This document shows positions 2,680 through 22,558 of a stretch of DNA of 33,313 nucleotides, piece by piece. Position 1 is the stretch's first letter. Each line of letters opens with the position of its first letter. A model generated the notes under the pieces. That model searched no databases, had not been told where the DNA came from, and saw nothing but the letters and a program-made list of their open reading frames with translations. Both the position numbers and the translations under genes were made by a program. The DNA comes from a virus. The stretch lies in IMG/VR virus record IMGVR_UViG_3300015201_000002. One strand, written 5' to 3'.

Positions 2680-5600
2680 ATGGCTGGAACACTAAGGCTA
2701 CGAAGCCTGTTCAATTACCCTTTTGGTAGAGGAAACTGGGCAGGTGTTTATGGAGGAACATCTAACTTCAATACCGTAACTGGTGATAACTCAGATGGTT
2801 CCTACATTTACCTATCCTCACCTTATACTGGAAGCCCTTCAACAGGGGCATCATTCAAATATAAGGTAGCTCCTGGTCTAGTTCCTGGTGGAGCTAAAGT
2901 AAAGTCAATGCGTGCAGGTGGTAGAGGTAAAACTACCAATGCTAGTACTGAAGCTAATATTAGGTGTACTGCTCAGAATATTTCAGCAGGGCAGCCACTT
3001 GGAGCTAACTATCCTACAGTCGGAGGTTTTATTAAACTGACAACTTCTTTTGCAGATTTCTACAATACTGTAACTGACACAACTACTATTTCTGGTGGAA
3101 TCATCACTAATGGTGGAGCCATTACTCCCGAATTAGTAGCATCAGGAAATCTAGTAGTTGAAGTATATAATGTTGAGACTACTGTAATCCAGATTTCTGA
3201 ATTATGGATTGATGTTGCATACGATGAGAAGCCTGTTGTAGTAATCGATGAATTAGGAGACGTAACCAACACTACATCACCTAACATTACCTGGACTTAT
3301 ACTGATGATGAAATGCCTCAGAAGGCTTATGATATCCAGGTACTTAATGGATCAACTATAGTCTATGAAGCATATAATGTTCAGTCAGCGCTTCCATCAG
3401 CAAGAATTCCAATTTCTCTTGCTGATGGAACTTATACTGTTAAGGTAAGAGCTTACCAGGAATGGAATTATGCTGGTGATGGTCCTGTAAGCGACTATGA
3501 CACTATGACTTTTGATATTATTCTAGGTCGCCCTGCTGTACCTACCCTTACAGGATTTGAAGAGCCTACATTAGGTAGAACTAGACTAGTAGCTAACCAT
3601 AAGCTAAACCTTCTATCAGAGGGTGCTGCTGAAATGGAGGTAGCTTCCTGGGATGATGCTACTAACGCTGTATTAATGACTAATACCACTACTGTAAGTA
3701 CAGGAGATAGAAGCCTATTGGTTGAATTTACTGGTGCAGGAGCTACTGCTGATGTGAAAAGCGTTAGCTATGTTCCGGTAGTAGCAGGTGTAGCTTATGG
3801 ATATGCATTTAGATTCAGGGCATATCCTGGAGATGCTTTAGTAGACCTTACTGCATCAGTAGCTTGGTATGATGCTAACCTATCCCTACTATCTACAAGC
3901 TCAGGTACTCCTGTAACTGAATCTAGCGCATCCTTCAGATTAGCTTCAGTAAATGCTGTTGCTCCTGTAAATGCAGCTTATGCTAAGCCTTTATGTCATT
4001 TCAGCGGAAATGCTGCTGGAGATTGGCATTTCTTGGATAGCGCAAGGTTTGCTGCATTAAACTCAGTTGGAGACACCGTACCTGATTGGACTAGAGGTGG
4101 TTTTGCATTTAACAGTGTGAACTTCTTGAGCTATGGTGATTCTACTATGGAATCTACTACACACTGGACACCATCTAATGTTAACACTTCTGCTACTGTC
4201 GTAGATTCAGGAATTACGGGAGTATCTGATTACCAGGGAAACAGTTCACTTGAATTGAAGACTACTGGACTTCTTGCAAGGCGTGATAACGAAACTGCTG
4301 TAATTGCTACAGGCACAGCTCTAGTTATTAACCTTGGTGATGTAGTTGAGGGTGATGTAATGCTTGCCCTTATTCTAGGAACACAGACTACTATCACAGC
4401 TCCTTCAGGTTGGACATTGCGAGTAGGACCAACAGATGATGGAACTTCAACAAGAGTATGGGCATATACAAAGGTAGCTACTGCTGCTGAGCCCTCTACT
4501 TATACTTGGACTTTAGGGGCTTCAGGTAAGCACGCTGGTTTGATCACATCTTATGATGGAATCAACACCACTACACCTATTCATGCGATTACTGCAACTG
4601 CTGCTCCTGCTGCCGCTACAGTATTCTCAATGCCTGCTACTACAACTCCACACAATGGAATTCTAGTTCAGGCTGTATTAGGTCGTAGAGCTGCCTCAAC
4701 TGTAGCTACAACTTGGACATCTAACCTAGGAACAGGATCTAATAAGGATGCGGAATTAAGTACTACAGCTAATACAGCTAACGAGGTTGCTTTTGGAGTA
4801 TTCTCACAGAGGCAGGAGACAGAGGTTGTAGTTAACACTACAGCAGTTTCAGGTAAGACTTTAACTGCATCTGCCTCTCTTCCTGATGCTGTAGCAATCA
4901 CAGTAGTTCTTAACCCTGCTAAAACTACTGTAGGTACTACTCTAAAGACTTATGAAATGTATCCTATTAGTACAAGCACTGATTATGTAGTTCACGCTGC
5001 TGTTCTTGGGGCTGATGAATCTACTACAATTTATGATTCTGCTAATAGAGATGTTTCAATCTGGCTGGATCTATTCGATAACAATAAGGCATACCTTACT
5101 ACTACAGGATTAACCTTTACTGCAAGCCCTGGAAACTGGAAGAAGATTGGAACAGCATTCAATCTTGCAGATAACCCTGCTGTAGCATTTGCCTCATTGC
5201 GAATCGAAGTAGATTCAATTACAGATAATGAGGCATATTATCTTGATGCTATTAGTTTCTATGCTGGAAATGTAGACCTAGGGTACATTGAAGGAAAGAA
5301 GGTAGTAGATGGTCCTTACACTGAGTTGCAATACTCAGAGGATAATGGAGTAACTTGGCTATCTAAGGAAGCTATGTGGGTTGAATTTGCATCACAGCCT
5401 ACTATTGAATTCTTGGATTATGAAATTGCCTCTGAAACTCCAAGATTGTATAGAGCTTTCAACTGGAAGGTTGAAGAGGGTAATCTTCTTCAGTCAGACT
5501 ATTCTAGTACAATAGAATTGGAAGTTACTTTAGTAAGGGTATGGATTCATCTAGAAACTGACCCTGAAGGAACTATCAATCAATTCATTTATGACAGTGG

Positions 5601-7340: not shown

Positions 7341-8089
7341 TGGCAAGCAAATTACCTGCTGGTTTCAATGCAGACTACGTAACTCGTGTACTTTCTAGGT
7401 TACAAAGACAGAATGAGCAGAATAAGCCTAGTCCTACACAAGACCCTAATAAAAGGTTGGGAACTATTCAGACTGGGTTTGTTCCTAACAATGCTAGTAC
7501 ATTAGTTCCTGTAATTTTTGATGGTGAGGCTTCAGCACAGAACCTTATGAGCACTGTTACAGTATTTGCAGGCGATAGAGTAACGCTAGATAAATATGGT
7601 GGGGCTTGGGTAGTGAGAGGAAACTTAACTACTCCTAGTAGGGAAAAAATGCTTATTAAAGCTAACACTACAACCAGAGCTAATACTGTAACACCCACTG
7701 ATGATCCTGAACTTGTAGCTACTATCTATGCAGCAGGAAACTATTTGGTGACATTCAATATCATTGCTCTTGCTAGTGATTCATTTGATTTGAGAACTGC
7801 TTGGAGACCTGACTCTAATGTGTCTAACGGAACTAAATACGTTATAGGTCCTGGTACTGGAAACGATGGTTCTGATAACTCTACTTCACGTTGGGGTGGA
7901 GCAGGATTAGCTACACCTCTTAACTACGGAGCAAGAACTGGTAACTTCCAATTTAATCTAGTGGAATGGTCATATATTCAGGCTACGGGAGCAGGAACAA
8001 TTTATTTTCAGTGGTCACAGGTTAGCTCTGGAGCTACTGTAACAGCCTTGGTAGCTGGGTCTGTAGCTACCGTAAAAAGAATCAGTTAA
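7340..8089 (+). CDS. Minor tail protein / possible receptor-binding protein (249 aa)
   Basis: ATG 7340 overlaps the upstream TAA (TAATG), so I prefer it to the track start at 7274. The C-terminal half is Gly/Thr/Ser/Asn-rich and beta-rich. It is the last large ORF of the tail block. Confidence 0.5.
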   Translation: MASKLPAGFNADYVTRVLSRLQRQNEQNKPSPTQDPNKRLGTIQTGFVPNNASTLVPVIFDGEASAQNLMSTVTVFAGDRVTLDKYGGAWVVRGNLTTPSREKMLIKANTTTRANTVTPTDDPELVATIYAAGNYLVTFNIIALASDSFDLRTAWRPDSNVSNGTKYVIGPGTGNDGSDNSTSRWGGAGLATPLNYGARTGNFQFNLVEWSYIQATGAGTIYFQWSQVSSGATVTALVAGSVATVKRIS

Positions 8090-9704: not shown

Positions 9705-10232
9705 TTATGACCAGCTAGCTACTGTTCCGCTCATATCTTCCAGAGTGACAGTTCCCGTCTTGAAAGAATCCTCAGTACTGATGAGTTGCATGTGGTAGGT
9801 CTTCTTTGTACCTTCGCTCATGTTGTCGAAGAACGGTCCCATTCCGTTCTCACATGCGATTGATGCTGTGATGTCACCTTCTACTGTACGGAAACCAAAG
9901 TGAGGACCATCAGTGCTCAGTTCCTCCTGCATCCAGCCGTTAGGAGCCTCAAAGAGGATGTCGAAGTTAGAAACCTGCCCTTCATCCTCAACGATCCATT
10001 TTCCTTCTTTCGGCATTCTGGGCTTAGAGACAGTCAGCTTGACACCATCCAGATAGGTGAAGCTCTGTCCGTACTTGAGAGAAGCTACTGAGACGTTTTC
10101 TGAGCTGTCTTCTGGGTTGAGGGTTGCAGAGGGGCTAGGAATAACTTCTGATGGCTCTACGTTACTCTCAGGTGCCTTAGAACATGCTCCTAGCATAGTA
10201 ACGAGTAGAGCTAGAGTGATGATGGCTTTCAT
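9705..10232 (-). CDS. Secreted lipoprotein (175 aa), candidate lysogenic-conversion / superinfection-exclusion gene
   Basis: The signal peptide MKAIITLALLVTMLGAC carries an L-G-A-C lipobox. AAAGGGAAACC lies upstream of the ATG. The gene is on the strand opposite almost all other genes and has visibly higher G+C and C/G-ending codons. Confidence 0.8.
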   Translation of the reverse strand: MKAIITLALLVTMLGACSKAPESNVEPSEVIPSPSATLNPEDSSENVSVASLKYGQSFTYLDGVKLTVSKPRMPKEGKWIVEDEGQVSNFDILFEAPNGWMQEELSTDGPHFGFRTVEGDITASIACENGMGPFFDNMSEGTKKTYHMQLISTEDSFKTGTVTLEDMSGTVASWS

Positions 10233-11335: not shown

Positions 11336-13270
11336 ATGGCTTTTGGAAAAGATAGCACTACAAGAAATGTAAACTTTACCAACACCAATGAGATTGAGGG
11401 TTGGTTCAGACCTTATACAATGATGGGTGTTGGTGCTGCTGTAGTATTTGGATTTGTAGCAATTATGAGAATTGCTATGTGGATTAATTTATACTTTTTC
11501 CATAATCTACCTGCCACAAACTTCTGGACATGGGGATTAACTGTTTGTGGAATTATTGCATGTGTCTTCGTGTATAAGTTCTATCACCGTAGAGGCGAGC
11601 AGGGTAATGAAGTTCTTATCAGGTTTCATCCTACAGTAAGTACAGCATTAGGATTTATTTGGATGATCTTAGCTTTCAACGATCAGCCCAACGCATGGAT
11701 GTTCTCACAAGTAAGTTTAGGCTTATTCATTTTAGGTGGAGGACTTGTTGCCTTTACTTGGATGGCAAGGCGTTGGAGTTTCAAGAGTTTCCAACCAGCA
11801 GAACCTAAAACTAATGAGTGGGAATTGCTAGGATTTGGTGAGACTTCAGCTATGGGCAATGTTCCTGTTCCTGGTGGACGTAAAATTAAGTTGAAGCTAG
11901 ACCCTAAAGTTACTACATCAGATTTGCTTGACAAGATTACTTTAATCGCTAAGAAGTTCAAAACTAGTTACAAAAAGATTCGTATTCAGGAAGATTTGGA
12001 AGATCCTAACTTCGCTTACGTAACTGTAATGGAGCAGGAGCCGTTTGCAGAGGCAGTGTTATGGAAGGGACCTGATAAGCCAGGAACTAGTATTGCAGAA
12101 CCTATTGAGTTTGCTACTTATGATACAGGCGAAAGAGCCAATCTTTATTTATCAGGTAAGGATGGTGAATCTTGTTTCTCATGGTTAACTACTGGAATGC
12201 CGGGAACAGGTAAGACTTATGCATGGCAGGTAATTTATGGATCTGTTCTAGCTCGCAAGGAAGTTAGTTTAGTATGGATCGATGCATCAAAGGATTATGC
12301 ATCGGCTATGCCTCTACTATCTGGAATCGAATGGTTTGCAGGTAGTCTAGAGTATGCTCATAAAGTAATTGCTAATGTAGATAGGTCAATTGAGTCTCGC
12401 ATGAAGTACCTTGCTAGTAAAGGTTATCAGTATTGGAAGCCTGGTTGTGGAATTAATTTCATCATCCTTCACGTTGAGGAGGCATCTGATTTCCTGGATA
12501 CTGAATCTGAGAAGGTCTTGAAGCATATTTCTAGAGCAGGTCGTTCTGCTGGCGTTATCGTTATTTATTCTCTTCAGCGTGCCACTAACGATAATATGCC
12601 TACCTCTCTACGAAACAACCTAGAAGGAAAGATGGCATTCAAGGTTGGTAAGAAAAGCGAGCGTCAGTTCTGTCTTTCAGATAAGCAGCTTGGGGCAGGT
12701 GCAGCACCAGAAACAATTGCAGTTAACGGTGGGTTCTATTTTGACAGTAGGTATGAACCATCTGAATTAGCTGGAAATATGGTACGTGGAGATAAGATGG
12801 ATGAGCTTGAATTAGAGCGCTCTGTGGATATGAGTGCAGGATTCAGAACACCTCTTGATAATGTTACAGCTTCAGCATTTGGTCAGCCTTATGAAAAGTA
12901 CCGTGCTGAAGTTATGAACAATGCAACTGAATGGCAGAAGGTTCGTATGAATCGAGGTTCACATAATTCTGAAAGTATGAAAACTGGATATGAAAATATG
13001 AACGATGACACAGCAGAGTATGAAAAGTATGAAAAGCCTGTGAAAAGCAATCGTTCACAGAATTTGAATAGTGATCCTGCTGCTGAGGCTGAGAAGCTTT
13101 GGAATTTCATAGTTACTATGGATTTCGAGAAGTTCACAAAGTCTGAAATCTACAAGCCATACATGGCAGCTACAGGAAAGAGCAAGTCTTGGATTTGTTC
13201 ACAGATTGACAAGTGGGAAAACGATGGAAAGATCGCTAACGAAGGATCAGGTAAGTATTCCATCAAGTAA
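11336..13270 (+). CDS. Membrane-anchored FtsK/SpoIIIE-family DNA translocase-like ATPase (644 aa)
   Basis: ATG 11336 follows AGGAGAAATAATT. Four N-terminal hydrophobic helices are present. Walker A is GMPGTGKT and Walker B-like is NFIILHVEEA. RAGRSAGVIVIYSLQRATNDNMPTSLRNNLEGKMAFKV matches the FtsK pattern gRa.Gi....tQrp....i....r.n...ri.f.v. The C-terminus is winged-helix-like. Confidence 0.85.
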   Translation: MAFGKDSTTRNVNFTNTNEIEGWFRPYTMMGVGAAVVFGFVAIMRIAMWINLYFFHNLPATNFWTWGLTVCGIIACVFVYKFYHRRGEQGNEVLIRFHPTVSTALGFIWMILAFNDQPNAWMFSQVSLGLFILGGGLVAFTWMARRWSFKSFQPAEPKTNEWELLGFGETSAMGNVPVPGGRKIKLKLDPKVTTSDLLDKITLIAKKFKTSYKKIRIQEDLEDPNFAYVTVMEQEPFAEAVLWKGPDKPGTSIAEPIEFATYDTGERANLYLSGKDGESCFSWLTTGMPGTGKTYAWQVIYGSVLARKEVSLVWIDASKDYASAMPLLSGIEWFAGSLEYAHKVIANVDRSIESRMKYLASKGYQYWKPGCGINFIILHVEEASDFLDTESEKVLKHISRAGRSAGVIVIYSLQRATNDNMPTSLRNNLEGKMAFKVGKKSERQFCLSDKQLGAGAAPETIAVNGGFYFDSRYEPSELAGNMVRGDKMDELELERSVDMSAGFRTPLDNVTASAFGQPYEKYRAEVMNNATEWQKVRMNRGSHNSESMKTGYENMNDDTAEYEKYEKPVKSNRSQNLNSDPAAEAEKLWNFIVTMDFEKFTKSEIYKPYMAATGKSKSWICSQIDKWENDGKIANEGSGKYSIK

Positions 13271-13382
13271 GTCCTAGGCAGTACACCAAGGACCAGTTCT
13301 AGTTAGTTCTAGGCTGGTCCTTGGTTGGTTCTAGGGCAGTCCTAGGCATGGTTTTAGGCGAGTCCTAGGGGTAGTTCTAGGG
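13271..13382 (+). repeat. Array of eight direct GTYCTAGG(C/G) repeats with about 11-bp phasing
   Basis: Copies start at 13271, 13296, 13306, 13328, 13339, 13351 (degenerate GTTTTAGGC), 13362 and 13374. Spacings are 25, 10, 22, 11, 12, 11 and 12 bp. The array begins 1 nt after the stop codon of the FtsK-like gene. Confidence 0.8.
13285..13325 (+). terminator. Stem-loop after the FtsK-like gene, embedded in the repeat array
   Basis: ACCAAGGACCAG (13285..13296) pairs with CTGGTCCTTGGT (13314..13325), giving a 12-bp perfect stem. Two GTTCTAG repeats lie in the loop. The downstream T-tract is weak. Confidence 0.55.
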
Positions 13383-13582
13383 TGTTTTGCCTGGTCACAG
13401 TAATAAGAGAGCGGGACAGAGATTTCTGTCGTACACATAGCAGTATCGTTGAGAGAAATCCTTATGCATATATGCCTGCCAGGATAGTCCTACAGCCCGT
13501 TCAGAGCCACGCTGAGAGTTGTTTTAATACTTCTGGTAGTCCTGTCAGGCTAGAGTTTAAAACCGATTAGAGAGGAAATAAA

Positions 13583-13768
13583 ATGCCATATTCAACTGAG
13601 TATTCCTGCAACCATTCCACCAAGAATCAAGAGGATAATAACCCTAAGCATAAATGTTCTGCTGGATATGTTCCAGAGGATGATTCTTGTCCTGTTCATC
13701 CCCTCTGGCACGCAGCTATCAAGAGAGAACTAGCTAAGGAAGTTACTTGGATGGATGAACTAGAGTAG
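13583..13768 (+). CDS. Hypothetical small Cys/His-containing protein (61 aa)
   Basis: AGAGAGGAAATAAA precedes the ATG. It is the only credible ORF in the 13271..14397 region. Confidence 0.45.
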   Translation: MPYSTEYSCNHSTKNQEDNNPKHKCSAGYVPEDDSCPVHPLWHAAIKRELAKEVTWMDELE

Positions 13769-13778
13769 CTTCTAGCTT

Positions 13779-14090
13779 TTCACACATGTGTGAAGGATAT
13801 GAAAAGTGTGAAAACAAATCTGTGAAGAGTTCATACTGTATGAAGAGATATGTGAAATGTATGAAAACACCAGTTCACAGAAGTGTGAAGATTTCACACC
13901 TCGTAGAATCTATGAATTCACACTTTTCATGTCCTTCATAGTTTTCATACATCTGTGAATTGAGGTTTTCACACTCTGGGACTACTCTTCACACAACTAT
14001 GAAAAGATGTTACACTGTATGAAGAACAAGCAAAACTGTGTAAGCAGTTGAGCTTAAAGTGTGAAATGTGAAAATTCATCTATGAAAAAG
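13779..14090. repeat. Dense heptamer (TRTGAAR) iteron field; probable replication origin or other multi-site protein-binding locus
   Basis: I counted about 15 forward and 11 reverse copies of T[G/A]TGAA[A/G]. Examples include the 16-bp palindrome TTCACACATGTGTGAA (13779..13794), TGTGAAGATTTCACA (13884..13898), TATGAATTCACAC (13911..13923) and TGTGAAATGTGAAAA (14060..14074). No ORF is present and the region is AT-rich. Confidence 0.85.
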
Positions 14091-14260
14091 GATGCCAATC
14101 CTAGACGTAGAAAAATTTTCAGACTTTTATCGAGATTCGGGTAACTTCGTGGCTGTTGTGACCGATAGGTAAGAGTGAAGCATTAAAATAGATTCGCACT
14201 CTCCAAGGGTGGTTCCGGAAGAGAGTAAACATAGCTCCTCATTTCTGGGTGCGATGGTTT

Positions 14261-14290
14261 AGGGTCCATTGGCTTTGGCTGATGGACCCT
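14261..14290 (+). terminator. Stem-loop with a partial U-tract immediately upstream of the 517-aa ORF (terminator or attenuator)
   Basis: AGGGTCCAT (14261..14269) pairs with ATGGACCCT (14282..14290), giving a 9-bp stem and a 12-nt loop, followed by TTGGGTTTCT. Confidence 0.5.
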
Positions 14291-14397
14291 TTGGGTTTCT
14301 ATCCGATGCTTCTAAACAGTAAAGAATTTTGCAAGTACCAAACCCAAACCATACGTACAGAGGTTTACCACCTCATAATCAGAATAAGGTCGTAGCT

Positions 14398-15951
14398 ATG
14401 AAAAACACTAAGCTTTCTCGTGAAGAGAATGTAGCCAAGGGCTATGCAGTAATTAATCCTAATGGGATTTATAGAAGACCTCCTGCAATGAACCAGGAGA
14501 TGAGAGATAAAGTTGACTCAGGTTACGTGCAGGTAAATGCATGGGGAAAGATCGAGTTGACAGATAAGTATGATCTCGAAATTAACGCTATTCAGAAGCC
14601 TACCCTAAAAAATCCTCTATTCACTGGCGATCAGGTTGATATTATGTTCGGCTCAATTCTATTGCAGGATATGCAAGAGTTGAAAAGCCAAATGGTAGCT
14701 CAATTCCCTGAAAGTGTGAATTCCGTTGTTTACCTTATCGATAAGAAGCCTGTAAAGCTGGCAGCTATGGAAGCTAAGCTAAACAGAATGTTCAACAACT
14801 ACTGGACACCTGAACGTAAAGCTATCGCTAAGAACAACCAGCACATGCAGTACGCTTATGAAGTTGCTGTACTTAAGCTAGAGCAGGCTAAAAGCAATAC
14901 CCTAGCTAAAATCGCTAAAGCTGACTCTTACCTACAGAGTGCTATTGAAAGAAAGAACAACCCTGAACTAGCAAAGAGTCAGAACAAGATTGCAGCCATC
15001 ATTGAAGATAAGAAGCGTTCATCTTCTCAGAAGGTTGAAGCTATCTTTGAAGGTGATAAGTCAGCAGGTGCTAGCCACAATGCTAAGAGGACTATTGTTC
15101 TTGCTATTGCTGGTTTCCTTGGTAAGGGATTGGATAAGGATTCTATCTTTGCTGAGATCGTTAAGATGGATGAATTCTCAGCCCTATCCTACAAGCGTCC
15201 TGAAAAGGAATTCAGCAGGATCTTTAATGATACTACCTCTTGGATTCATCACAAGAACCAGATTAAGGTATTCTATGATCTTCTTGGCTGGATCTCTGAA
15301 GGAATGAACAACACCAAGATTCGTACCAAGACTAAGGATCTCTTCTACGTCCTTATGACTATGGTTGCATTGCATCAGGCTAAGGATAATGACTCAAGAG
15401 GACTAGTAGCCTTCAGGTATCTATCTAGGGTTACTGTTGTTAGTCAGAAAAGTCTAGAGCTAGATCCTCGCTCTCTGGGAGAGAAGTTCTCAGCTTATGC
15501 AAAACTTGGCTACATCAACTATGAAAAAGGTATTCAGGGAGGAATCAGTTCTCGTGCAGGATTGAAGCCTTATACATCTGAGCTAAGCCTGGAAGATGCT
15601 ATCAAGGCTAAAGAAGCAATCCTCAATCTCTTCCAGGACTCACCTTTCTACACTGAACTAGAGGCTGTATTGAACCTAGTTACTAGGACTACTGTTGTTA
15701 GTCAGAAAAGTCTAGCTACTCCTGCTTACAACGACTCTGATCTTGAGAATACTGTATTTGACCTGCTAAATGTATTCGTTCCTCTAACTCGTACAGCAGC
15801 AGATGAGAGGATTGCAGAGCGTCAGATTGAAAGTGTGGACTTTGAAGCAGCGAAGGAAAATTACCTTGCTGAGCAGGAGGAAAGAATCAAGGTTCATCTT
15901 GCAACAGGACTAGGCTTTCAGCCATGTAAGAAGGTATTTCTAGCCCCCTGA
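14398..15951 (+). CDS. Hypothetical 517-aa protein; candidate replication initiator / DNA-binding protein by context
   Basis: The long ORF is open from TTG 14329. I prefer ATG 14398 (MKNTKL), which has AAGG 8 nt upstream. It lies next to the iteron field. It contains two in-frame copies of the 27-bp motif, each encoding TVVSQKSL within wHTH-like context (RYLSRVTVVSQKSLELDPRSLGEKFSAYAKLGYINYEKG). No polymerase or helicase motif was seen. Confidence 0.65.
   Translation: MKNTKLSREENVAKGYAVINPNGIYRRPPAMNQEMRDKVDSGYVQVNAWGKIELTDKYDLEINAIQKPTLKNPLFTGDQVDIMFGSILLQDMQELKSQMVAQFPESVNSVVYLIDKKPVKLAAMEAKLNRMFNNYWTPERKAIAKNNQHMQYAYEVAVLKLEQAKSNTLAKIAKADSYLQSAIERKNNPELAKSQNKIAAIIEDKKRSSSQKVEAIFEGDKSAGASHNAKRTIVLAIAGFLGKGLDKDSIFAEIVKMDEFSALSYKRPEKEFSRIFNDTTSWIHHKNQIKVFYDLLGWISEGMNNTKIRTKTKDLFYVLMTMVALHQAKDNDSRGLVAFRYLSRVTVVSQKSLELDPRSLGEKFSAYAKLGYINYEKGIQGGISSRAGLKPYTSELSLEDAIKAKEAILNLFQDSPFYTELEAVLNLVTRTTVVSQKSLATPAYNDSDLENTVFDLLNVFVPLTRTAADERIAERQIESVDFEAAKENYLAEQEERIKVHLATGLGFQPCKKVFLAP
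15425..15451 (-). repeat. 27-bp motif copy 4, inside ORF 14398..15951, encoding RVTVVSQK
   Basis: The + strand reads CTAGGGTTACTGTTGTTAGTCAGAAAA. It shares 30 identical bp (TATCTAGGGTTACTGTTGTTAGTCAGAAAA) with the reverse complement of copy 2. Confidence 0.95.
15683..15709 (-). repeat. 27-bp motif copy 5, inside ORF 14398..15951, encoding TRTTVVSQK
   Basis: The + strand reads CTAGGACTACTGTTGTTAGTCAGAAAA. The 41-mer 15675..15715 is the exact reverse complement of 10301..10341. Confidence 0.95.
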
Positions 15952-17210: not shown

Positions 17211-17858
17211 ATGAACGAGAATGAAATTGATCTTGAGACTGCTCAGCTTATGACTAAGCTTTACCTTGGTGATAATGTTGATGAACTTACTAATAAAGAA
17301 ATTAACCAAAGAATTGAAGAACTTGCCAAGATCAAAGAGGCTATGCAGCCGAAGGTTGTATTTAGAGACAATCCAGAGCCTAAACCAAAACCTTTTTATC
17401 CTGGGCATGTGCGAAAGAACGCATCTAATTATGAAAGAACAGGTAAGAGAGATCAGACTGTATCAATTGCTGCAAGATGGATTGGAGATAGACCAGGGAT
17501 GCTATCAGAAGGTATAGCTCATCTGGATGCTGACCTCGAACAAGTGTGCAAAGAGAACTGCTGGAAGGTGTATGCCTATCTTGAAGCGAGCGCAGATCCT
17601 TCAAAGAAAGCATTCATTACGAGAGGTAAGTCAGAGGATACTAAGCATACTAGTTGGGCTATTAGATTGATCCATCATCCTCATGATATCAATTTAGAAA
17701 AGCCGATTAAATCTATTCACATTTGGGAGAATGGACGTAAATTAGTTGGCACAGCAGAAAACATTACATGGGAGCAGTTTCACGCTATGATGGAGAAGCT
17801 GCACCTACTACATAAGGACAGGAATGGTTGTGTAAAGCGCCCATTCTTCAAAGACTGA
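17211..17858 (+). CDS. Hypothetical protein (215 aa)
   Basis: The ORF has phage-typical codon use and GAAAGAGG upstream. No motif was recognised. Confidence 0.7.
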   Translation: MNENEIDLETAQLMTKLYLGDNVDELTNKEINQRIEELAKIKEAMQPKVVFRDNPEPKPKPFYPGHVRKNASNYERTGKRDQTVSIAARWIGDRPGMLSEGIAHLDADLEQVCKENCWKVYAYLEASADPSKKAFITRGKSEDTKHTSWAIRLIHHPHDINLEKPIKSIHIWENGRKLVGTAENITWEQFHAMMEKLHLLHKDRNGCVKRPFFKD

Positions 17859-18699: not shown

Positions 18700-19608
18700 A
18701 TGAAAGACAAAGAAGAGAAAGAAAAGATTATTGATATTGCAATTGCCATCCTTTTCGGTATTGCAGTAATTGTAGCTCTAATTATGTCATGGTTCTCTAT
18801 GACAGACTTGGCAATTAACACATTCGGACTACCAGAACTACTAGCTTGGATCATTTCCCTAGCATTTGATATTGGAGCTATCTTCCTGGCTCTGATTACT
18901 GTATCAGCAGCCTTGAAGGGTGAGAACGCAACAATGGCTAAGCTAGCAACCCTAGCATTCATTGGAACTTCTCTTTACATCAATGTAGTACACGCTGATG
19001 TAAGTGGGTACGGAACAGTCGGAATGATTATGTTCGGTGCTGCTCCTGCAATCGTATTCATCGCTTTTGAAGTTTACCTACGTCATATGCTTAAGCGAGA
19101 GCTAAGAGTACAGGGGTTGATTCCTGATAGAATGCCTAAGGTTGGTGCATTAACTTGGGTACGTCACCCTAAGCCAGCATTCAGCCTAGCCAGTAAGGCA
19201 TTGATGCTAAGGCTAGTTAAGGAAGATGTCATTCTAAACAGTAAGAATGAAAGCTATGAAAATCGTGAAGCAATTAATGTAGGACCAGCTACCGTAGCAA
19301 AGCCTGAGAAGCCTTCTAAGAATAAAATTGAGAGTACTAAGCAGATTCCTCAGCTTGCTCCTGCAATGCTCTCAGAAACAGTCTCAGAGCCTCTAGCAAC
19401 ACCTGTAGTTGAGGCGAAGGAAGAGTTTAAGTTTGGATTCCAGGCTACTCCCACTTTTACAGCTACAAAGCCTAGGGGAATGGCAATTGAAGCATACAAG
19501 CAGGGATTTGAAGATCATAATCAGATTGCAGAATGGATCAGTAAGGAATTAGGACAGCCTGTTAATCCTTCAAGTGTTCAGAAGTACAAGAGTGAAGCTA
19601 AGAAGTAA
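18700..19608 (+). CDS. Polytopic membrane protein with a C-terminal helix-turn-helix-like tail (302 aa)
   Basis: AAAGGAGATAGGAA precedes the ATG. There are four hydrophobic helices in the first 130 aa. The C-terminus GMAIEAYKQGFEDHNQIAEWISKELGQPVNPSSVQKY resembles an HTH. The architecture recalls actinobacterial DUF2637-type proteins, but this is from memory and was not searched. Confidence 0.65.
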   Translation: MKDKEEKEKIIDIAIAILFGIAVIVALIMSWFSMTDLAINTFGLPELLAWIISLAFDIGAIFLALITVSAALKGENATMAKLATLAFIGTSLYINVVHADVSGYGTVGMIMFGAAPAIVFIAFEVYLRHMLKRELRVQGLIPDRMPKVGALTWVRHPKPAFSLASKALMLRLVKEDVILNSKNESYENREAINVGPATVAKPEKPSKNKIESTKQIPQLAPAMLSETVSEPLATPVVEAKEEFKFGFQATPTFTATKPRGMAIEAYKQGFEDHNQIAEWISKELGQPVNPSSVQKYKSEAKK

Positions 19609-22321: not shown

Positions 22322-22396
22322 GCTGATGTAGTCCAATTGGTAGGAGACAAGAGCTTTAAACCCTCTACAGTGCCAGTTCGAATCTGGTCATCAGCA
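22322..22396 (+). tRNA. tRNA (75 nt, no encoded CCA). The best fold gives anticodon UAA, which reads UUA/UUG Leu codons, but with a short variable arm.
   Basis: The acceptor stem GCTGATG/CATCAGC has 7 bp, and the discriminator is A. The T arm is GCCAG-TTCGAAT-CTGGT. The D arm is GTC(C)...(A)GAC with GG in the loop. The anticodon stem AGAGC/CCTCT has 4 bp plus a C-C mismatch. The loop is TTTAAAC, with TAA at 22357..22359. Confidence 0.8.
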
Positions 22397-22558
22397 CTTA
22401 AGCAAGTACTAATTATCTTATTAGATATCTCCTTTCGGATTATATTTGTGAGTTTGGTTGCCTCAGTACTTGCTTATTAAATATAAAGCCCTAGCACATA
22501 AGATGTATCTCGTCATAGAGAACTAGGGCACTTAATAAAACATAAGGAGGTGAACAAT

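Follow-up and report, generated by a model that had tools for sequence, protein, structure and literature searches.

A two-part array of hexamer sites next to a traB-like gene in a siphovirus genome: proposed binding sites of a DUF2637 membrane protein

Which protein reads the dense field of short repeats at positions 13779 to 14090 of the IMG/VR virus record IMGVR_UViG_3300015201_000002? The analyzed stretch of DNA, here referred to as the window, comprises 33,313 nucleotides and represents a near-complete siphovirus genome (~33 kb) of a rare uncultured lineage. The repeat field is located in non-coding DNA between the gene of an FtsK-like protein and a gene encoding a protein of 517 aa. An earlier reading of the window, made by a model from the letters alone (here named the sequence-only reading), had proposed an iteron-type replication origin served by the 517-aa protein and, as an alternative, a recognition locus of the FtsK-like translocase.

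Our analysis points to a different reader, and we would give this explanation an even chance. Together with a smaller cluster (12890-13138), the field (13779-14090) forms an array of about 37 hexamers of the sequence TTCAYA (TRTGAA on the other strand). Each hexamer is proposed to be a binding site for the C-terminal three-helix domain of a DUF2637 membrane protein (gene 18700-19608). Since this protein would be anchored in the membrane by its N-terminal transmembrane domain, occupation of dozens of sites would fix this part of the phage DNA to the membrane beside a TraB-like pump. Between the two clusters lie the end of the traB-like gene and clt-like 8-mer repeats (13271-13381), so that the tether would keep the pump's loading site at the membrane. 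The region from 12.9 to 14.1 kb would then be a membrane-associated DNA-handling locus, comparable to the tra/spd/clt transfer and spreading module of Streptomyces plasmids. We infer both the DNA binding by the C-terminal domain and the membrane tethering through this binding from sequence comparisons.

The field is a real cluster of short sites which is selected at the DNA level and conserved in its position. It contained 24 copies of TTCAYA within 308 bp. The copies occurred in both orientations and with irregular spacing, ranging from 6 to 42 bp and often being 9-10 bp. About 26 heptamers of the form TRTGAAR had been reported by the sequence-only reading, 15 forward and 11 reverse. This count was reproduced for the cores, as 15 forward TGAA and 11 reverse TTCA were present in 13771-14100. 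However, the extension to TRTGAA was found in 24 of the 26 cores, and only 19 were strict TRTGAAR. The palindromes at 13779, 13884 and 13913 and the tandem pairs at 13851 and 14060, described there as well, were all present. Even the strict heptamer was far more frequent than expected by chance, since 5000 dinucleotide-preserving shuffles of the region itself gave 0.77 ± 0.85 copies with a maximum of 5, compared to the 19 observed. In the remainder of the window the motif density was approximately 1-1.6 copies per kb. The two copies inside the 517-aa ORF, which had been likened to the iterons within gene O of lambda, represent background density only. Furthermore, the top 6-mer count in 30 random sequences of 33 kb was 8 per 400 bp.

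When sites were gathered on TGAA alone, the three preceding bases were T in 91%, R in 91% and T in 100% of the sites. This preference identifies the hexamer TRTGAA (TTCAYA on the other strand) as the specific unit. The field had also been described as free of ORFs. Two short ORFs of 41 and 51 aa do overlap it, but these are composed of repeat units and are probably not genes. As to its kind, the description as a cis-acting field of protein-binding repeats was upheld.

Genomes related to the window are here given as L001, L002 and so on. Siblings and cousins of the window are L003/L004, L019 and L005 with L013; L001 and L002/L007 are more distant genomes carrying a homologue of the 517-aa protein. 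L006 was found via TraB, L020 via DUF2637 and L009 via a protein distantly homologous to the 517-aa protein in the C-terminal half of the latter. Arrays in these relatives were detected by an unbiased search for clustered 6-mers, which returned one outstanding array per genome. Every relative carried a dense equivalent array in two orientations with a lineage-specific hexamer of its own. The main cluster comprised 24-26 copies of TRTGAA in L003 and L019, 21 copies of mostly TATGAA in L005, 25 copies of TATCAA in L001, 22 copies of GTTACA in L006, 10-12 copies of GAGACA in L009 and, as a weak array, 9 copies of TTGACA in L020. In L002/L007, 34 copies of CGAACA were distributed over two clusters. 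Outside the arrays, no 6-mer with at least 10 copies per 400 bp was found in the 319 kb scanned, with the exception of G+C-rich low-complexity sequence in L028, an Allonocardiopsis locus with 71% G+C. Five control loci without DUF2637 contained no such 6-mer cluster either.

The fields of the window and L003 were identical besides a few changes. These included an insertion of 22 bp and a deletion of 24 bp, by which whole units were gained or lost, as well as point changes that create or destroy consensus copies. Such gain and loss of units is the turnover typical of an array of sites under selection. Few further lineages came from scanning viral, metagenome and genome collections, and the genome collection returned solely a TraB of 26% identity in Allonocardiopsis. 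In the cultured-phage collection no match to the region was obtained at the DNA level, nor by tblastn with the 517-aa protein or TraB.

The field does not stand alone. A second cluster of 13 TRTGAA/TTCAYA sites was present at 12890-13138, in the 3' part of the traB-like gene that precedes the field. In the TraB-like protein, this cluster corresponds to the linker and to the beginning of the C-terminal domain. The complete traB-like gene of the window carried 15 copies, compared to 6.7 ± 2.0 (maximum 13) in 2000 synonymous-codon permutations. A cluster over the linker-coding part of traB was likewise present in L003 (20 copies), L019, L005 (17 copies) and L001 (10 copies of its own motif). The sites of the L003 cluster occurred in both orientations and in several reading frames, and in L002 the motif was read in two frames, giving ERT and NEQ. 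In seven of the eight genes tested the motif count lay above all 2000 synonymous-codon permutations. Selection of the arrays acts on the DNA even where they lie within coding sequence.

In the sequences compared, the motif tracks the C-terminal domain of the DUF2637 protein and not that of TraB. The DUF2637 protein of the window (18700-19608, plus strand) was assigned by Pfam (PF10935, E=8.6e-10) and by alignments. It consists of an N-terminal transmembrane domain and a small three-helix domain formed by the C-terminal ~60 residues (nt 19420-19605). DUF2637 was the sole protein present in all array-bearing loci: L006 is without the 517-aa protein, and the loci of L009 and L020 are without TraB and without a conserved 215-aa protein, here named p215. 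Additionally, the array was located inside the DUF2637 gene itself in 13 genomes, namely L002, L006, L009, L020 and nine cultured Streptomyces phages. These intragenic arrays occupy the linker-coding part just 5' of the code for the C-terminal domain.

DUF2637 homologues were detected by tblastn in 102 records, 101 of which were Streptomyces phages. Ten Streptomyces phages were sampled for arrays in the DUF2637 gene. Eight of them (Jay2Jay, Coruscant, Battuta, Karimac, Navo, Tribute, Bmoc and Naboo) carried 12-23 copies of GTGACA/TGTCAC, and Kromp carried 18 copies of CGGACA. The array of Jay2Jay lies in gp34 (L029, 4471-4882) and that of Kromp in gp82 (L038, about 1914-2300); further GTGACA phages are L031-L037.

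The co-variation of motif and C-terminal domain extended over about eight motif types from few independent lineages. In the three phages with TRTGAA (window, L003 and L019) the DUF2637 C-terminal domain was 98-100% identical, although the transmembrane domain (32% identity) and TraB (38% in L003) had been exchanged. The eight GTGACA phages shared similar C-terminal domains and the same motif and differed in their linkers. Jay2Jay and Kromp, both phages of the same host strain (S. lividans JI1326), differed in the DUF2637 domain as well as in the motif, which disfavours a host protein as the reader. Identity of the C-terminal domain to that of the window decreased from L005 (59%) to L001 (54%) and L002 (25%), which is the same ranking as that of motif similarity. 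All motifs (TTCAYA, TTGATA, TTGACA, CGAACA, GTTACA, GAGACA, GTGACA and CGGACA) fit the form NNNAYA, and all DUF2637 C-terminal domains could be aligned as a small three-helix unit. In total, a hexamer NNNAYA in both orientations with about 10 or more copies per 400 bp was present in 18 of the 19 genomes examined; the weak array of L020 reached 9 copies.

Several points weigh against DUF2637 as the reader. The C-terminal domain, a possible helix-turn-helix, showed weak matches to Sigma70 region 4 (Sigma70_r4, E=0.02 and 0.17), and nothing significant was obtained against the sequences of solved structures. The number of independent lineages is small, and in the TRTGAA group co-inheritance with p215 or the 517-aa protein is possible. 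In the window, the array is located 4.6 kb from the DUF2637 gene and directly 5' of the 517-aa gene, where it possibly has a second role. In the Streptomyces phage Wakanda, the tenth one sampled, the 4 kb to each side of the DUF2637 gene are free of arrays. Linkers rich in Val and Thr contribute part of the signal seen in the Streptomyces phages. Finally, it is conjecture whether a tether would serve translocation, segregation or replication at the membrane.

One alternative is an array for another co-inherited phage protein, such as p215 or a small lineage-specific protein, with a function in regulation, packaging recognition or something else. We consider it unlikely, even though the reader of the array was assigned by inference only. 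For p215 (17211-17858), an invariant DxD and several invariant Cys and His residues are characteristic; it may be a small primase-like enzyme. It had no match in Pfam, PHROG, NCBIfam or PADLOC, and a profile search against the PDB sequences was empty as well. It is 100% identical among the TRTGAA phages, 79% identical in L005 and present in most lineages, as would suit a co-inherited reader. However, it is absent from the loci of L009 and L020, both of which carry arrays, and in L001, whose motif is one base from TATGAA, its identity is down to 30%. A pac site was rejected since 8.5 kb separate the field from the small terminase gene. A promoter array was dismissed, too, because the single promoter-like match in the field is within chance level. 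Two further candidates were rejected: a CRP-like palindrome, because the spacing is 5 instead of 6 and relatives have other motifs, and Chi-like sites, because the motif varies between phages of one host.

An iteron-type origin, as put forward by the sequence-only reading, would mean that the 517-aa protein binds the hexamers, opens the DNA and recruits host replication proteins. This, too, is an explanation that we find doubtful, and the array is probably not a replication origin. Its position speaks for it, as the field lies directly 5' of the 517-aa gene in five genomes (window, L003, L019, L005 and L001). Furthermore, no recognizable polymerase, primase or helicase was found among the phage proteins by protein family scans, and distant homologues of the 517-aa protein are the main early gene of small temperate phages. 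The protein itself (14398-15951, plus strand) belongs to a very rare family, with 4 homologues among 5.8e9 clustered proteins and 7 representatives among 1.84e9, and had no match in Pfam, PHROG, NCBIfam or PADLOC. AF2 predicted the whole protein poorly (pLDDT 56). For residues 220-517, in the C-terminal half, the prediction reached a pLDDT of 84.5 and showed a winged-helix-like module, a helix-turn-helix with a beta wing. Foldseek searches of this half against the PDB gave nothing significant (E of at least 0.23). The leading non-significant matches were mostly winged-helix regulators of the MarR/PadR/YceH type, with DnaD-N further down.

However, the linkage between array and candidate initiator gene was broken in three lineages. 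In L002 the array is located 3 kb from the 517-aa homologue, and there are no repeats upstream of the homologue gene. In L009 it lies in the DUF2637 gene and not in the 467-bp leader of the homologue, and L006 carries its 22-copy array with no 517-aa homologue, even by HMM search. The motif did not track the protein either. Identity to the 517-aa protein of the window was 61% in L002, which has an unrelated motif, 62% in L005, which has a similar one, and 46-48% in L001, whose motif is one base from TATGAA. The predicted recognition helix was nearly the same in the window and L002 but different in L005. The broken linkage, the poor tracking and the pattern of the recognition helix together make the 517-aa protein a poor candidate for the reader; it is possibly a replication or organizer protein.

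No AT-rich unwinding element is present at the field either. Classical theta-type origins carry their iterons beside an AT-rich region (PMC2440964). Within 13200-14450 no 40-bp stretch with at least 75% A+T was found; the A+T content was 65% in the field and 57% in the leader preceding the 517-aa gene, and the genome has its AT-rich peaks at other positions. The units are irregularly spaced and 6 bp long, unlike iterons of 17-22 bp. Cumulative GC skew, which had been suggested as a check, climbed steadily through the field with no inflection, although such a profile carries little weight for a phage whose transcription runs one way. Arrays of this kind are also present in Streptomyces phages of ~130 kb, a group including phages reported to have replication enzymes of their own.

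A direct repeat of 33 nt (94% identical) is located within the 517-aa gene at 15425-15457 and 15683-15715 and encodes TVVSQKSL twice. Both copies were changed together in L005 (TVVSAAN), which suggests gene conversion or a role at the DNA level.

The neighbouring translocase (11336-13270, plus strand) had been compared to actinomycete TraB, and this likeness was confirmed. By its sequence, the product of the 'FtsK-like' gene is homologous to TraB, the conjugation pump of Streptomyces. It matched the NCBIfam model NF041214 plasmid_TraB over its full length (residues 64-643, E=1.5e-67, below the curated cut-off of 800 bits) as well as PHROG 24831 and 1358, and the alignment agreed. The protein is composed of N-terminal transmembrane segments, an FtsK/HerA-type ATPase and a C-terminal winged-helix-like domain. 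In plasmid pIJ101, TraB reads 8-bp TRS repeats in clt, and short repeats are located near the traB 3' end (PMC4170104).

Straight after the traB-like stop codon, at 13271-13381 on the plus strand, we found an array of direct repeats with seven exact 8-mers GTYYTAGG and additional degenerate copies. Seven of the 12 matches in the window were packed into these 111 bp, all on the plus strand, and the array surrounds a hairpin at 13285-13325. GTTTTAGG repeats were present at the same position in L003, L005 and L001. By analogy, the GTYYTAGG array, which the gene of a TraB-family translocase adjoins, is a candidate clt/TRS-like loading site. In L006, CCTAGGAAT was found 8 times after TraB (10040-10150).

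The hexamers, too, could be thought of as a clt-like locus, with the winged-helix domain at the C-terminus of the TraB-like translocase as their reader, but we regard this as quite improbable. TraB proteins do read short repeats near the traB 3' end (PMC4170104), and the hexamers lie within ~1.5 kb of traB in every TraB-bearing lineage, invading its 3' coding region in five genomes. However, the hexamer and the TraB C-terminal domain do not vary together. One and the same hexamer is present in the window and L003, yet identity is down to 38% for the TraB proteins and 37% for their C-terminal 62 residues. Conversely, the TraB C-terminal domains of L003 and L001 are 77% identical, yet the motifs differ (TRTGAA and TATCAA). 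Arrays were also found in loci lacking TraB (L009, L020, Jay2Jay and others). Since the motif is independent of the TraB C-terminal domain and arrays are present without TraB, the translocase is an unlikely reader, and the idea that it recognizes the hexamers is disfavoured. The separate 8-mer repeats right after the stop codon are the better clt candidate.

Sites for a host factor, for instance degenerate DnaA boxes, or a mere accident of composition have next to no probability, because, although TTTTCACA resembles TTWTNCACA and the reverse complement of TGTGAAAA agrees with the DnaA box consensus at 8 of its 9 positions, approximately half of the copies are TATGAA and break a contacted base, the sites form no DnaA-box cluster common to elements of the same host, close relatives use unrelated motifs, Jay2Jay and Kromp differ in motif on one host strain, and chance was excluded by the shuffles and the 6-mer scan.

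The proposal of a membrane tether read by DUF2637 may be carried one step further. The phage would then possess a working DNA-transfer module of the conjugation type, in which DUF2637 docks the chromosome at the membrane or septum via the hexamers and the pump, loaded on the 8-mers, moves double-stranded DNA into neighbouring hyphal compartments or cells without virions. The window would thereby represent a hybrid of a phage and a conjugative element and, on a wider scale, DUF2637 proteins with self-encoded site arrays would be a general system for tethering DNA to the membrane in actinophages. We regard this extension as improbable.

The closest known counterpart of the locus is the tra/spd/clt module of Streptomyces plasmids. 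Both have a TraB homologue with short direct repeats right after its gene and a membrane protein encoded within the same module. Precedents exist in pIJ101, where the site bound by the spread protein SpdA2 lies within the SpdA2 gene and where the membrane protein SpdB2 both binds DNA and interacts with TraB (PMC4170104). However, the window represents a tailed phage with terminase, portal and tail genes and not a plasmid. Dozens of hexamer sites are present here in place of the single palindrome sps, and the hexamers do not follow TraB. DUF2637 is likened to the Spd proteins by role only.

Centromere-like arrays are a second counterpart, among them the heptads WATCACW of pSM19035, which are bound by omega and arranged as direct and inverted copies, the heptamer boxes of P1 parS, and R1 parC. 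They share many short sites in two orientations that would nucleate a large nucleoprotein complex, and lineage-specific motifs co-evolving with a small DNA-binding domain. Unlike in these systems, no partition NTPase was found among the scanned ORFs of the window, the proposed binder is an integral membrane protein, and the sites often lie within the binder's own gene. The p16.7 protein of phi29 has an N-terminal membrane anchor and a C-terminal DNA-binding domain and organizes replication at the membrane. It is alike in concept alone, as a membrane-anchored phage protein which holds phage DNA at the membrane. In contrast to the protein proposed here, p16.7 shows no sequence specificity in binding DNA, and no site array is dedicated to it.

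Iteron origins such as lambda ori in gene O, those of plasmid Rep proteins and P4 ori/crr resemble the locus by a repeat cluster beside a large early gene, and in lambda O copies spill into coding sequence as well. The short octamer repeats of P4 ori/crr are present in both orientations and bound by the alpha protein. Differences are the lack of an adjacent AT-rich unwinding region in the window and its irregular 6-bp units (origin features: PMC2440964), as well as the linkage to the candidate initiator, which was lost in three lineages.

Some further features of the region are described here. Between the 8-mer array and the hexamer field lies a conserved non-coding box (TATGCCTGCCAGGATAGTCCTACAGCCCGTTCAGAGCCACG) at 13464-13518 on the plus strand. 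It comprises about 45 bp of the form TATGCCTGCC...CCTACAGCCC....GAGAGCCACG and is kept in four lineages despite diverged flanks; possible roles are those of a promoter, nick site or binding site. Directly 5' of the field, an ORF of 61 aa rich in Cys and His (13583-13768) is 100% conserved in the TRTGAA phages (L003, L019) and has no homologue in L005 or L001.

The 517-aa gene is preceded by a structured leader (14180-14375, plus strand) with two hairpins, including a terminator-like stem at 14261-14290. Compensatory changes preserve both stems in the window, L003, L005, L001 and L002, and a similar hairpin (~4980-5015) is located before the distant 517-aa homologue of L009. The leader had no match to an Rfam family. 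At the gathering score, Rfam returned the tRNA alone, and the matches within 13200-14450 were at chance level only. This tRNA-Leu (anticodon TAA) is located at 22322-22397, just 5' of the small terminase gene.

The window encodes tape measure and tail proteins and carries three minus-strand genes, the FtsK-like gene, the field and the 517-aa gene. Also encoded are an HNH endonuclease, the 215-aa protein, the DUF2637 membrane protein, the tRNA-Leu, both terminase subunits, small and large, and the portal, head and major tail proteins. The window is mosaic when compared to its siblings L003 and L019, which are 96-100% identical outside of 11336-13270 and 18700-19419. Within these two segments the TraB alleles are 38% and the DUF2637 transmembrane domains 32% identical, and the C-terminal domain of DUF2637 is unchanged. 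In Jay2Jay (L029), nine forward copies of TACATA were found within 400 bp at ~7445-7850, mostly in non-coding DNA close to an HNH gene; they possibly form a further repeat field.

Arrays of repeats to which small DNA-binding domains bind are an established type of element. In the searched literature, there was no account of a membrane-anchored reader whose sites often lie in its own gene. The case of the window also calls for caution, as a dense repeat field beside a large early gene need not be an origin.

Genes for FtsK/TraB-like and for DUF2637 proteins are common in actinophages, and the searched literature mentions both only in passing. The arrays offer both gene types a concrete DNA target, and for each phage they predict the hexamer which would be bound by its DUF2637 domain. 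If the proposal is true, these proteins would make up a family of DNA tethers that are anchored in the membrane and bind specific sequences by a simple code (NNN-AYA). The proposed system would be accessible in cultured Streptomyces phages, e.g. Jay2Jay and Kromp, and arrays of this type span the range from uncultured 33-kb phages to Streptomyces phages of 130 kb.

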